From a virus, in the IMG/VR virus record IMGVR_UViG_3300045740_000123, positions 21,145 to 85,144 of that record: a stretch of 64,000 nucleotides of DNA; one strand, given 5' to 3'. Below the pieces are notes generated by a model. The model worked only from the letters and a program-made list of their open reading frames with translations. It was not told the origin of the DNA and ran no database searches. Position 1 is the stretch's first letter. Each line of letters opens with the position of its first letter. Positions 20,913 through 43,324 of this stretch are shown here, piece by piece. The position numbers and the translations under genes are program-made.

Positions 20913-21215
20913 ATGACAACCAAACGCCAGTACGACTACACCATTGGTGATCGCGTAGCAGAGCGTCCCAAATCCCATGGTATCTTTGCTGTACGCAATG
21001 AAACCAAAGATCGTATTCAGCAGTACAGGTCCCAGCGCTATGGCACTGTTGTTGGTATTAATCTGAAACCAAACAAGTCAGGTGCTAAGCAGAAGTTCTT
21101 GCTGATCAGGTGGGATCATTTGCAGACTCCCACGGAACATGCACAGATGAGGATCTGTCCTGCTGATCAACTCCAGCGTTTACAATCTGAGGGTTATGGA
21201 TTCGAAGTCGAATGA
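20913..21215 (+). CDS. hypothetical protein
   Basis: MTTKRQYDYTIGDRV...; SH3-barrel-like pattern. Confidence 0.65.
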   Translation: MTTKRQYDYTIGDRVAERPKSHGIFAVRNETKDRIQQYRSQRYGTVVGINLKPNKSGAKQKFLLIRWDHLQTPTEHAQMRICPADQLQRLQSEGYGFEVE

Positions 21216-40089: not shown

Positions 40090-40126
40090 TCGGAGATGCA
40101 GGATTCGAACCTGCGACCCTCTGCTC
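40090..40126 (-). pseudogene. 3-prime half of the disrupted original tRNA-Pro
   Basis: minus strand GA-GCAGA-GGGTC-GCAGG-TTCGAAT-CCTGC-ATCTCCG-A; pairs with the half at 40612-40644. Confidence 0.9.
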
Positions 40127-40518
40127 TATTTAGCTTTTTGTTTCTTCACCTCTCTTTGCTTTTTACCCGCCTGGCTTTTTGCTGTTTTGCACAAATCACA
40201 CCGACATCCATATTTGGAATACGACCAAACTGTCCCATGTGTTTGTCGTTTTTCGTTGGTCCAGCCTTTACCATAACTTCCTTCTTCTAAAGTCTTAATG
40301 TGATGACAGGGTTTGCAAAGTAACTGACACTTTTTAAGTTCTGTTTCTAATGTATCCCAATGGGTTGACCACTTGCAGCTAATATCAAAACTTTTAGAAG
40401 TGTGATCTATGTGGTCAATATGCAACAAATCAGAACAGCCGCATTTAATGCAAACACCCCCAAGAAAATCAATCATCTCTTGGCGACGTTTTTTGTAATC
40501 AGAAATTTTTGAAACCAT
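40126..40518 (-). mobile_element. HNH homing endonuclease of the tRNA-Pro replacement cassette
   Basis: LGGVCIKCG..LHIDHID...ELKKCQLLCKPCH..K and C-terminal HGT..Y...CRCDLC; ATG at 40518. Confidence 0.88.
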
Positions 40519-40523
40519 AAAAA

Positions 40524-40594
40524 TCGGGGTGGAAGGTACTGCCCCTTCTCCTCCGCCTCCCAAAGACGGCGTGATACTTTTCTACTACACCCCG
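40524..40594 (-). tRNA. atypical tRNA-Pro(UGG), replacement copy
   Basis: acceptor CGGGGTG/CACCCCG plus A73, anticodon arm CCGTC-TTTGGGA-GGCGG, T stem GAAGG/CCTTC with non-canonical loop GGCAGTA, weak D arm. Confidence 0.8.
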
Positions 40595-40768: not shown

Positions 40769-41317
40769 TTATACAGATTCATTGGGTGTTTTCCAGAAAT
40801 AATCATCGCATTCTCCAAGCCGACCCCACTTCTCTTCCCGATAATCAATATCTTTAGTTAAAAAATCAATAGCGTTTTTCAATATTTGGATATTGTCTTT
40901 GGCGTGGCCAAGCATTGTATTGCATCTATGGCATAAAAGCCCTCTAACCTTGCCTGTTTCATGGCAATGATCTACACAAAATGTTTTCTTTGGAGCGGGA
41001 CTGTTTGTTTTGCATATGGCGCAACAACCTTTTTGAATTTCCAGAATTTGTTTGTATCTACCCCTAGGTAAACCATAGGAACGCAAACGATCAAGATCAT
41101 TAGCGTGTTCTAAATTGTTTTGGCGCCATCGATTGTAATTTTCTTGATGGCGCTTTTTGTTTTTTCTTGACCATTCCCGGCTGTACTCGTTTGTACAAAC
41201 ACGGCACCAAGTATTTAAACCATCTTTGTTTTTCTTTGCTTTGTTAAAAGCATCCTTGGATTTAATCTCTAGGCATTTGGTGCATTTTTTCGTTGGGAGT
41301 TTGCCAGAAATAGTCAT
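40769..41317 (-). mobile_element. Endonuclease VII-type homing endonuclease fused to the displaced C-terminus of its target gene
   Basis: CAIC...FCVDHCHETGKVRGLLCHRCNTMLG; ends KWGRLGECDDYFWKTPNESV. Confidence 0.88.
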
Positions 41318-41951
41318 CGCACTCGCCTAGGCGCCCCCATTTTAACGCTTTTTCAGAGTCAAAGTATCGAGTCGATACCTTAAAGTCTGGTGTCTTTAGA
41401 TCGTGGTTGGTGAGCGATGGATCAACCATTCGACAACGATTGTTGGGATAAGCGCCAATTTGACCGTTGTCCAAAGCCACAATGTTGTGGGACTTATGCT
41501 CGTCAGGAAATTCCGCAAAGTAAAAATCCGGTTCGTTCCTATGAGGATGATAATTGTCAACCGTAAATAGGTATGTGCCTTTCATTACACCTGCACTACG
41601 TGTCATAACTTGAAACTCCATATTGAAGATCAAGTTCTTTTCGACAACCGTAAGACCATGATCAAATCCATTCCAGAACTGCAGGTCAGTTAGCTCTAGG
41701 TCAGGAGTGGGTGCTTGAGGTTTGTCCGGATAATCTGGATCCCATGCCAGGAATGCACTGATGGGAAGCTTGTCGTAAAGGGCTCCGTACTCAGTAAGAT
41801 AAGTCTCAAACTGAAGTGCTCTACCAGTTAAAGATTTACAACTTACCCAATAACCAGGCGTATATTCACCATGACCGTCTCTTAGGTCACGTAAGTATTC
41901 ACGCCTTACCCAAACCTTGACGGGCGGGACATTGGCCACAAGAGTTGTCAC
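41262..41951 (-). CDS. conserved phage hypothetical protein (endonuclease target)
   Basis: ANVPPVKVWVRREYL, GALYDKLPISAF, EHKSHN...NGQ..AYPNNR; GTG start. Confidence 0.8.
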   Translation of the reverse strand: MTTLVANVPPVKVWVRREYLRDLRDGHGEYTPGYWVSCKSLTGRALQFETYLTEYGALYDKLPISAFLAWDPDYPDKPQAPTPDLELTDLQFWNGFDHGLTVVEKNLIFNMEFQVMTRSAGVMKGTYLFTVDNYHPHRNEPDFYFAEFPDEHKSHNIVALDNGQIGAYPNNRCRMVDPSLTNHDLKTPDFKVSTRYFDSEKALKWGRLGECDDYFWQTPNEKMHQMPRD

Positions 41952-42077: not shown

Positions 42078-42284
42078 TCAGGATTTACTTCTTTGATAAC
42101 GCCTTGCTGCGCGTCCAGCAAGTTTTGCTTTTCTGGTGTTTGGTACAAATTGTTTGCCTTCGCGGCTAGCCTCGCGTTTCTTTTGGTCAGTCTCTTGCCG
42201 TTCTTCTTTAGATAATGAGGCCCAGGCAGACTCAGGTAGATAACGTTTGGTGTATCCCTTTTGAATTGCTTTATCTGCCATCAT
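42078..42284 (-). CDS. small basic protein, partner of the DUF5872-like gene
   Basis: TKRYLPESAWASLSKEER..TDQKKR....GKQFVPNT. Confidence 0.75.
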   Translation of the reverse strand: MMADKAIQKGYTKRYLPESAWASLSKEERQETDQKKREASREGKQFVPNTRKAKLAGRAARRYQRSKS

Positions 42285-42592
42285 TTACTATCCTTGTATT
42301 TCTTTGCAGCTTCTTTAGCTTTACCGCGCTTTTCATACTCATCTTTCGTCATCCATTTCTCCTTGCCCCACTTCTCCAGGGACTTCTGCTTCTCACCTTT
42401 ACCTCCTTTGTATCCACCGCCTGCACTCTTGTATTCCTGTGCCACAAGCTGAGCTTTTCTAGCCGAAATAATTAGTTAGCCTTACGGCTACGACCATTCT
42501 CCTGGTTTACCGCCACGGCCTTCACGCATAACTTTGTTTTTGATGCGCTCACGCAGGTCTGGTTTTGTGTACTTGCTTTTATCTTCAGCCAT
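42281..42592 (-). CDS. DUF5872-like protein interrupted by a candidate 27-nt ribosomal bypass element
   Basis: MAEDKSKYTKPDLRERIK...GGKPGEWS, gap, ARKAQLVAQEYKSAGGGY...; skipping from TCG to TCG restores the WSARKAQ motif; absent from the ORF track because of in-frame stops. Confidence 0.75.
42464..42493 (-). other. putative programmed translational bypass (hop) element
   Basis: TCG TAG CCG TAA GGC TAA CTA ATT ATT TCG: matched codons, stop after take-off, hairpin TAGCC-GTAA-GGCTA. Confidence 0.7.
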
Positions 42593-43232
42593 AACTTCCT
42601 CGCTCTTTAAGATAAGTGACTGCGTTTGTCAATACATCTATATTATCACCAAATAAACCTAAGGCTCTATTGCACTCTTTGCATAATAAACCTCTGAACT
42701 CATTGGTTTGATGATTATGGTCCATGGCTAAAGATTGTTTATCCTTGGGAGGCTCTTGGCAAATTGCGCATAAACCTTCCTGGGACTCAAACACAATGTC
42801 GTATTGCTCTTTTGTTATCCCTCTGCGTTCGTATTTTTTGTGATTATGATGCAATAAATCTTGCCCTTGTTTTTTAACTTTCTGATAATGCTCCTTATTA
42901 TTGTTTACCCATTTATCCCAACTTAACTTATTGCAAGTTTTACATGAAGAATGAAGGTATAATTTACCGTCTTGCTTTCTTCTTCTAAAGCAATCCCAAT
43001 CTAAATAATGAGCACATTTAGAGCATTGTTTTTGACCGTCTGCTCCATACAATAATCTAAATCGACGGTTGATCAAAGATCTACAATCTTTGCATACGCT
43101 GTCTCTTTTTATATTACCAGCAGAGTTATACCCTTTGTTCCCAAAATTTTCATGCGGCTTTCGGGTTCCGCATTCTCGGCAAAGCTTTTGCATTGGTTGG
43201 TTTGTGCTTTTCTTACAATAGCACAAAATCAC
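42585..43232 (-). mobile_element. Endonuclease VII-type homing endonuclease inserted in the DUF5872-like gene
   Basis: two N-terminal CxxC modules, GITKEQY...CAIC...LAMDHNHQTNEFRGLLCKECNRALG; the start may be the internal MQKLC. Confidence 0.88.
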
Positions 43233-43324
43233 TGCCCAGGCTTGCCGCCTTTAGAACCAGCCATTACGCGATCTTTAATCCTCTCGCGTAACTCCGGTTT
43301 CGTGTATTTGTTTTCCTGAGATAT
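43229..43324 (-). pseudogene. displaced original 5-prime part of the DUF5872-like gene
   Basis: (ATA)SQENKYTKPELRERIKDRVMAGSKGGKPGQ*; homologous to 42491-42592; no ATG at the start-equivalent position. Confidence 0.88.

Follow-up and report, generated by a model that had tools for sequence, protein, structure and literature searches.

How can a phage gene whose invariant motif is split by a stop-containing gap still be read as one protein? This question is raised by a locus in a 64,000-nt (64 kb) stretch of the virus record IMGVR_UViG_3300045740_000123 (positions 21,145 to 85,144; the stretch is called the window below and all coordinates are window positions). The record is a complete virus of 85 kb with terminal repeats. 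The gene in question, gene X, is a small, conserved, basic phage gene that matches phrog_17747 (6e-22). We call it DUF5872-like, which denotes a resemblance below the Pfam threshold: the gathering threshold is 27.5 bits, whereas the score is 24.9 for an uninterrupted homologue and 15.6 for the 3' part in the window. In the window, gene X carries a homing endonuclease gene (HEG) and a 24-nt gap, and the comparisons described here make it probable that the gene is expressed by programmed translational bypass, that is, by a 24-nt Ser-to-Ser hop of the ribosome.

The locus lies on the minus strand. In the order of that strand, the tail of a small upstream gene is followed by the stranded beginning of gene X, an 8-bp hairpin, the HEG, a rebuilt 5' part of gene X, the gap and the 3' part:

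43232..43324, minus strand: stranded original 5' fragment of gene X, 31 codons, ISQENKYTKPELRERIKDRVMAGSKGGKPGQ, ending in ...GGKPGQ
43229..43231, minus strand: stop codon TGA at the left cassette junction, closing the stranded fragment (TAA in other cassettes)
43201..43227, minus strand: 8-bp hairpin TTTGTGCT / AGCACAAA in the interval from the junction to the HEG start, read from the sequence and kept in nearly all cassettes
42585..43193, minus strand: HEG, 202 aa from its ATG (Pfam PF02945, 1.3e-22; PHROG endonuclease VII families)
42491..42592, minus strand: cassette-borne rebuilt 5' part of gene X, 34 codons, MAEDKSKYTKPDLRERIKNKVMREGRGGKPGEWS, ending in GAA TGG TCG
42491-42493, minus strand: take-off codon TCG (UCG), the last codon of the rebuilt 5' part
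42467..42490, minus strand: coding gap, 24 nt, TAG CCG TAA GGC TAA CTA ATT ATT
42488-42490, minus strand: UAG stop directly after the take-off codon, the first codon of the gap
42477-42490, minus strand: gap hairpin TAGCC-GTAA-GGCTA (UAGCC-GUAA-GGCUA), -7.1 kcal/mol
42467-42476, minus strand: A/U-rich spacer, DNA ACTAATTATT, RNA ACUAAUUAUU
42464-42466, minus strand: landing codon TCG (UCG), the first UCN triplet in any register past take-off
42281..42463, minus strand: 3' part of gene X, the recipient's own sequence, 60 codons and a stop, ARKAQLVAQEYK..., ARKAQLVAQEYKSAGGGYKGG...

Judged by this layout, the segment is a mobile homing cassette of ~760 nt, consisting of a stop codon, a hairpin, an EndoVII-type HEG, a 34-codon replacement for the start of gene X and the 24-nt gap. 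Its site of insertion within gene X is the Trp-Ser codon pair of the WSARKAQ motif. The HEG has a Cys-rich region at its N-terminus and an Endonuclease VII (His-Me finger) domain at its C-terminus, and its match to Pfam Endonuclease_7 (PF02945) reaches 79.9 bits with a cut-off of 23.6. Between the HEG stop and the start of the rebuilt gene there is an overlap of 8 nt (ATGGCTGA), and the AGGA Shine-Dalgarno sequence of the rebuilt gene sits within the HEG 3' end. The 8-bp hairpin may control expression of the HEG. The stranded fragment breaks off at the motif's Trp codon and its start codon has decayed to ATA, which is ATG in relatives.

An earlier note on this DNA had described an insert in the WSARKAQ motif of the rebuilt gene, at the point where the stranded 5' part breaks off, and all its elements are indeed found in these places on the minus strand. 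The length of 27 nt given for the insert includes the landing codon, whereas the non-coding gap itself measures 24 nt. The matched TCG take-off and landing codons, the stop after take-off, the three in-frame stops (TAG, TAA and TAA) and the hairpin can all be read in the sequence as described. Both flanks are open, with 34 and 60 codons, and joined across the gap they would give the proposed 94-aa product. In the 64-kb window a single occurrence of the hairpin motif TAGCCNNNNGGCTA was counted, versus 0.03 expected.

What gene X looks like without the gap can be seen in its homologues. The closest isolate is Synechococcus phage S-EIVl (a neighbouring protein is 86% identical). Its gene X is uninterrupted, reads ...GQWSARKSQ... 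and is the sole homologue of gene X that was found among isolated phages. Insert-free homologues with the motif GQWSARK(A/S)Q comprise S-EIVl and 57 unique IMG/VR contexts. The motif Ser is encoded by TCT in 24, AGT in 16, AGC in 9, TCG in 3, TCA in 3 and TCC in 2 of 57 uninterrupted alleles, which makes 25/57 with an AGY codon. A second copy of gene X was sought across the complete 85-kb genome, and none was found besides the stranded fragment.

Natural versions of the gap were collected by several searches. An exact search with the 35-nt junction returned 15 IMG/VR contigs, and a protein-guided search returned 80 gene X loci, which were mostly uninterrupted, some of them having variant gaps. 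Three pattern scans left the gap unconstrained beyond a stop (two scans) or beyond the Trp codon (the metagenome scan), and their patterns permitted TCN or any codon at take-off. When pooled, the searches gave 110 public loci with the cassette, in 76 unique contexts and with 22 intact gap types. The common layout of the gap is UCG / UAG / UAGCC-GNRA-GGCUA / A-U spacer / UCN. Its length before the landing codon is 20, 21, 24, 25, 26 or 30 nt and it holds two to four zero-frame stops. Four gap types (20, 25 and 26 nt, in 7 contexts) break the frame. Joining Ser to Ser yields ...GEWS-ARKAQ... in every version, including the frame-breaking ones. The downstream frame is open for 47-62 aa in 32/32 unique viral-contig contexts. 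The same holds for the wider set of 110 loci except for three shorter downstream readings (27, 42 and 57 aa), which are unchecked against contig ends.

Three further searches delimit this set. Scans for take-off codons or stops of other kinds, which allowed TRR after any codon, produced 12 extra matches, all of them unrelated. Gap-less alleles of the cassette type (‘hit and run’) were looked for in IMG/VR and none was found. The matches listed in a scan of viral contigs for the TAGCCGTRAGGCTAA hairpin were ordinary coding sequence and further copies of the cassette. Contigs of three RNA libraries from three studies span the gap and show no deletion or joint; these contigs are uninformative on expression level or strand, and in the RNA runs only small shares of the stretch were represented. 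One cassette, L101 (IMGVR_UViG_3300011114_000999), has a full HEG, intact halves and a 21-nt gap (TAGCTATAATATTAAATAATT) without the GC hairpin, and it may represent either a hop that naturally works without a hairpin or one that was inactivated recently.

How strictly the signals of the gap are kept was estimated from 58 unique haplotypes of the cassette 5' part and gap. At the four-fold degenerate sites of the 34 cassette codons the mean diversity is 0.56. By comparison, the diversity of the third base of the take-off codon is 0 (UCG in 58/58 haplotypes), the UAG that follows is invariant in all cassettes, and the diversity of the ten stem positions is 0-0.07, with the exceptions of L101, which lacks the GC stem, and L286, which has one mismatch. 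Positions 1 (G) and 4 (A) of the loop have diversities of 0.03 and 0, and positions 2 and 3 vary within GNRA only (GUAA, GUGA, GGGA, GCAA and GAGA). The spacer is variable in length and sequence, but 91% of it is A/U (176/194 nt) and there are only 2 G in 194 nt. The cassette-specific N-terminal residues ..KNKVMREGRGGKPGE.. are conserved as well, the recipients having ..KDRVMAGSKGGKPGQ... Homologous inserts thus conserve both the matched codons and the near-invariant stem on which the earlier note had based its idea of a hop.

The landing codon is more telling in what it leaves out. It is UCG in 54, UCU in 3 and UCA in 1 of the 58 haplotypes and AGY in none, and in 22/22 gap types it is the first UCN after take-off in any register. 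Hence, the UCN landing codon is brought or selected by the cassette, and AGY is never tolerated. Re-pairing by a single peptidyl-tRNA-Ser would demand just such a restriction to UCN without AGY. The additional pairing of TAGCCG with the CGGCTA of the landing site, to which the earlier note had drawn attention, is real in the window, but only its GCCG:CGGC core recurs in other versions and even this core is broken in those that land on TCT or TCA. The recurrence of the core follows automatically from the hairpin and the UCG-GCN sequence.

Both halves of gene X bear the mark of purifying selection. In the 34 cassette codons the ratio of non-synonymous to synonymous diversity (pN/pS) is 0.15 at a pS of 0.51, and the start codon is ATG and the take-off codon TCG in 30/30 unique sequences each. 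In the downstream 42 codons pN/pS is 0.18. No conserved ATG, GTG or TTG was found for the downstream half, and L004, L103 and L116 have none in 42 codons. The upstream contexts (n=62) contain a full open HEG in 49 cases, a remnant of 19-62 aa in 7 and no HEG in 6, and the gap has been kept in the 12 upstream contexts where the HEG was lost. A divergent clade includes L117, L148, L190 and L114, in which the HEG is absent or a remnant, as well as L063, where the HEG is full, and L139 (HEG status not established). In this clade pS is 0.3-1.0 versus a pN of 0.04-0.28 in both halves. L117 and L148 are without a HEG and have an identical 26-nt frame-breaking gap, although 29-32% of their synonymous sites, but only 4-7% of the non-synonymous ones, differ in both halves. 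As the gap is conserved in these two without the nuclease, it is not kept there for target immunity, and its conservation points to a role in expression. In the converse case the signals have decayed jointly: the cassette of L122 (IMGVR_UViG_3300049043_000164) has no HEG, has lost its start codon, has one stem mismatch (GGCCA), and has lost the landing codon and the downstream frame.

The cassette evidently spreads by homing. Stranded fragments are found in 39 distinct recipient contexts, about 35 of which read ...G-Q in frame and are truncated at one point; a cassette-borne TGA or TAA closes the fragments and is followed by the conserved hairpin. The consensus of the left junction is ...CAR T(G/A)A on the one side and TTTTGTGCT... 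on the other. From this junction to the take-off codon there are 736 nt in the 12 cassettes measured, the window included, and the offset is the same in most others. Despite diverse recipients, the cassettes are 73-100% identical in most contexts, and each always brings its own version of the gene X 5' part. A left junction common to ~35/39 recipients is best read as site-specific spread into diverse genomes, and the start codon still present in 34 stranded fragments suggests that insertions are recent and repeated. A full HEG beside an uninterrupted gene X was never found in the IMG/VR contexts. The gap is located 2-4 nt from the left junction. Such a position fits destruction of the nuclease target, a role that we infer here and that was demonstrated for MobA (Bonocora et al. 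2011, as cited in PMC7026636). By this analogy, the gap would break the DNA target of the HEG within an invariant motif while leaving the protein unchanged, and genomes with the cassette would be immune to their own nuclease.

A mechanism for the hop can be proposed by analogy with T4 gene 60. The ribosome would translate the 34 cassette codons and pause once peptidyl-tRNA-Ser sits on UCG in the P site and the A site contains UAG. Starting at this UAG, the 5-bp GNRA hairpin would form in the A site and exclude the release factor. The peptidyl-tRNA would release UCG, and the ribosome would slide by 20-30 nt, over the unstructured A/U spacer. The tRNA would re-pair at the first UCN and decoding would restart at GCN (Ala), so that the complete 94-aa protein would be made with its GEWS-ARKAQ motif intact. 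As UCU and UCA also serve as landing codons, the hopping tRNA is suggested to be a serine tRNA with a UGA anticodon.

Several observations weigh against a hop and must be set beside this model. The support for it is entirely comparative. The stem shows no co-variation and hence there is no compensatory-change proof of its pairing, which we infer. With 5 bp, -7.1 kcal/mol and a z-score of only -1.1, the hairpin is a short one, and the 91-nt context has no folding advantage over shuffled sequence (z-score +0.46). A mini-Shine-Dalgarno is lacking 5-7 nt ahead of the landing codon; the closest AGG falls in the loop and 3' stem of the gap hairpin, 9-19 nt upstream. One version of the gap, that of L101, lacks the GC hairpin altogether. 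The contigs from RNA libraries may include carried-over DNA. Gene X can be lost, as in L122, and so may not be essential. Finally, 34/39 stranded fragments retain their start codon and most downstream halves come from recently invaded genomes, so that an intact downstream half alone is weak evidence.

The last points would suit a cassette that simply destroys gene X, leaving the 34-aa peptide or nothing useful and persisting by super-Mendelian homing. With most stranded fragments intact, the insertions would be young and this would explain the intact downstream half; the decay of gene X in L122 and its DUF5872 score below the Pfam cut-off would also agree. However, a gene-killer has no reason to keep a translatable replacement 5' part (ATG in 30/30, pN/pS of 0.15). 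Lineages without the HEG hold both halves under purifying selection with the frame-breaking gap unchanged, conservation is far higher in the gap signals than at synonymous sites, and the interrupted copy is the sole gene X of a complete genome. We therefore regard loss of the gene as unlikely. Termination at UAG with re-initiation nearby, for instance at an in-frame AUU/AUA in the spacer, would instead yield a separate C-terminal fragment, which might associate with the 34-aa peptide. An AUU/AUA of the downstream frame does come just before the landing codon in many 21- and 24-nt spacers, and in the 20-nt version an in-frame AUG or GUG lies nine codons upstream. But there is no such AUU/AUA in the 25-, 26- and 30-nt versions or in the ATTATTT version, and several contexts are without a canonical start in the first 42 downstream codons. 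Two polypeptides would also leave unexplained the matched Ser codons, the avoidance of AGY and the purifying selection on the N-terminal part of the cassette, a homologue of the N-terminus of the gene itself, and we find this explanation barely credible.

Removal of the gap at the RNA level, by excision of 24-27 nt from the mRNA as a mini-intron (possibly with the help of the genome's group I ribozyme) or by an endonuclease and a ligase, would explain the frame-independent lengths and exact restoration too, and the same genome does have a group I intron (97 bits). This intron however lies outside the window in another gene, at a distance of 49 kb, and within the window none was detected by Rfam. 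An exon-U/intron-G boundary is not obtained in any register of the TCG repeat, the options being G/U, U/U, C/C and G/G, and there is neither a bulge-helix-bulge nor a second hairpin. The RNA-library contigs of the three studies retain the gap and contain no joined form, which is a weak argument given possible DNA carry-over. Above all, excision would leave unexplained why a stop comes right after take-off and why landing is limited to the UCN box of the take-off codon. Its probability appears very low to us, and a ribosomal hop is still the reading that we prefer.

Three further candidates were rejected. Stop reassignment or readthrough is ruled out by the presence of TAG and two TAA and by the four frame-breaking versions; the only tRNA in the window is a tRNA-Leu(UAA). 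A single frameshift is possible for the 20-nt version only, where the +2 frame is open from ATG or GTG, and is excluded for the 25-, 26- and 30-nt versions. A consensus scan flagged the hairpin and ACTAATTATT as an intrinsic terminator, which was dropped as the T-rich tail is missing from most other versions.

The best precedent for such a hop is the bypass of T4 gene 60, which lies within the MobA element (Huang 1988, Weiss 1990 and Bonocora 2011, as cited in PMC7026636). In both cases one mobile cassette combines a HEG, a replacement N-terminal part that overlaps the HEG stop, and a gap in a conserved motif at the HEG target, and in both the take-off codon is followed by UAG. In T4 the gap is GGA UAGCC UUCG GGCUA UCUAUAGAAAUACCUCAUAAUUAAGAGAUUAUU GGA and in the window UCG UAGCC GUAA GGCUA ACUAAUUAUU UCG. 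The tip of the take-off stem, UAGCC/GGCUA, is identical and capped by a stable tetraloop in both, the gap's 3' portion is AU-rich, and AUUAUU precedes the landing codon in T4 as well as in the window. Persistence of the gap after decay of the HEG is another shared trait of gene-60-type cassettes. Dozens of these cassettes are known, some with GNRA loops, and an Aeromonas clade has a 20-nt gap (Manning & Atkins, bioRxiv 10.1101/2022.08.31.505936). According to the same authors, gene-60-type elements occur exclusively in Topo2L of Myoviridae, and the bypass cassette is called unique.

The differences are equally clear. The target is the large subunit of topoisomerase II in the MobA/Topo2L family but a 94-aa DUF5872-like gene of S-EIVl-like cyanophage relatives here. 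By Pfam assignment, our HEG is PF02945 Endonuclease_7, whereas the T4 mobA remnant is PF01844 HNH, and the MobA/Topo2L family has MobA-type HNH endonucleases or GIY-YIG/VSR replacements, with CTE/NTE tails. The hop uses the Ser codon UCG instead of Gly or Asp codons, and spans 20-30 nt instead of mostly 50. The stem has 5 bp with the take-off codon unpaired, compared to ~10 bp in T4, and the mini-Shine-Dalgarno that T4 has 5-7 nt before its landing codon is absent. There are no working split subunits with CTE/NTE: the old 5' part is a redundant remnant without a CTE, the upstream fragment running straight into the stop, and the gene is rebuilt downstream. The element would thus work like the gene-60 family without being a member of the MobA/Topo2L family.

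Whether the two gaps are related is less certain. Identity of the UAGCC/GGCUA stem and of AUUAUU with the T4 gene 60 gap makes common descent possible, and convergence is possible too. There are few good solutions for a stop-initiated, GC-closed tetraloop hairpin. Of the ‘independent minimal hop element’ proposed in the earlier note, the hop is supported by 22 gap versions, whereas its independence is uncertain, as the stem and AUUAUU are those of T4. We would only tentatively entertain the idea that the gap is a portable minimal hop module, which descended from the T4 gene 60 bypass and moved to an unrelated endonuclease family, gene and phage group. Such a module would occupy 20-30 nt in all, with a stop, a UAGCC/GGCUA stem capped by a stable tetraloop, a spacer of A/U and a matched codon. 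It would work without a long stem, a mini-Shine-Dalgarno or a topoisomerase-specific nascent peptide.

Two other systems offer partial parallels. The byps of Magnusiomyces capitatus mitochondria are also short non-coding inserts, reportedly of 27-55 nt, that have a take-off stem-loop and codons matched between take-off and landing. Unlike the present element, these elements (Lang et al. 2014, cited in PMC7026636) reside in a eukaryotic organelle with another translation system, in dozens of copies per genome, and are unlinked to homing endonucleases. Free-standing phage HEGs (T4 mobE / I-TevIII / seg, and MobE in Aeh1 nrdA, as described in Manning & Atkins, bioRxiv 10.1101/2022.08.31.505936) likewise insert at a conserved coding target, co-convert flanking sequence and leave the donor immune through target-site differences. 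In their case, however, immunity comes from synonymous polymorphisms, or function is restored via introns, inteins or split subunits, and none has a stop-containing gap inside a reading frame. Among the papers searched, none reports phage bypass outside Topo2L, nor DUF5872 with a bypass.

Several other elements were noticed near gene X and elsewhere in the genome. Directly downstream of it (42078-42284, minus strand) is a small, very basic gene of phrog_14910 (...KRYLPxxAWASLSK.E...), which accompanies gene X in a differing genome context too, between terminase and portal genes (L011, 6753-6956). A second Endonuclease-VII HEG at 40769..41317 (minus strand, Pfam 88.5 bits) overlaps the end of a 229-aa gene at 41262..41951, which belongs to phrog_3704 and is 86% identical to an S-EIVl protein annotated as PurM. 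The 229-aa gene and the open reading frame of the second HEG both end in KWGRLGECDDYFW[QK]TPNE. The region 40769-41951 looks like a mirror-image cassette, with a rebuilt 3' end before the HEG and, behind it, the stranded original 3' end in frame fusion with the HEG; a gap was not seen in it. A third Cys/His-rich open reading frame (40126-40563, minus strand, 145 aa, ...CIKCGCSDLLHIDHIDH...CKPCHHIK...) resembles an HNH nuclease, with no Pfam match at E<=0.1. Outside the window, the group I intron (RF00028, 97 bits, G000:C1:14333-14574, minus strand; about 1501-1742 of locus L216) lies just upstream of a 379-aa capsid-like open reading frame, and a 192-aa HNH-type open reading frame adjoins on the other strand. 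At least three kinds of selfish elements are thus present in the same genome.

To our knowledge, programmed bypass of tens of nucleotides has been demonstrated experimentally for T4 gene 60 only and is inferred for the yeast mitochondrial byps. If the hop in gene X is real, it would provide a second gene context and another endonuclease family, and hopping would become a general route for a HEG to disrupt its own target while leaving the protein unaltered. If the portable-module reading were also true, bypass would be a general immunity device open to any HEG that hits an invariant motif of a protein, and a hop of 20-30 nt would need far simpler signals than the T4 paradigm implies. As a set, the 22 natural gap versions amount to a ready mutational series on what hopping ribosomes need, with six lengths, five GNRA loops, three landing codons and one hairpin-less form, the HEG being present in some forms and absent from others. 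Also, since gene callers will label such genes as split or as pseudogenes, the frequency of bypass in phages is probably underestimated.

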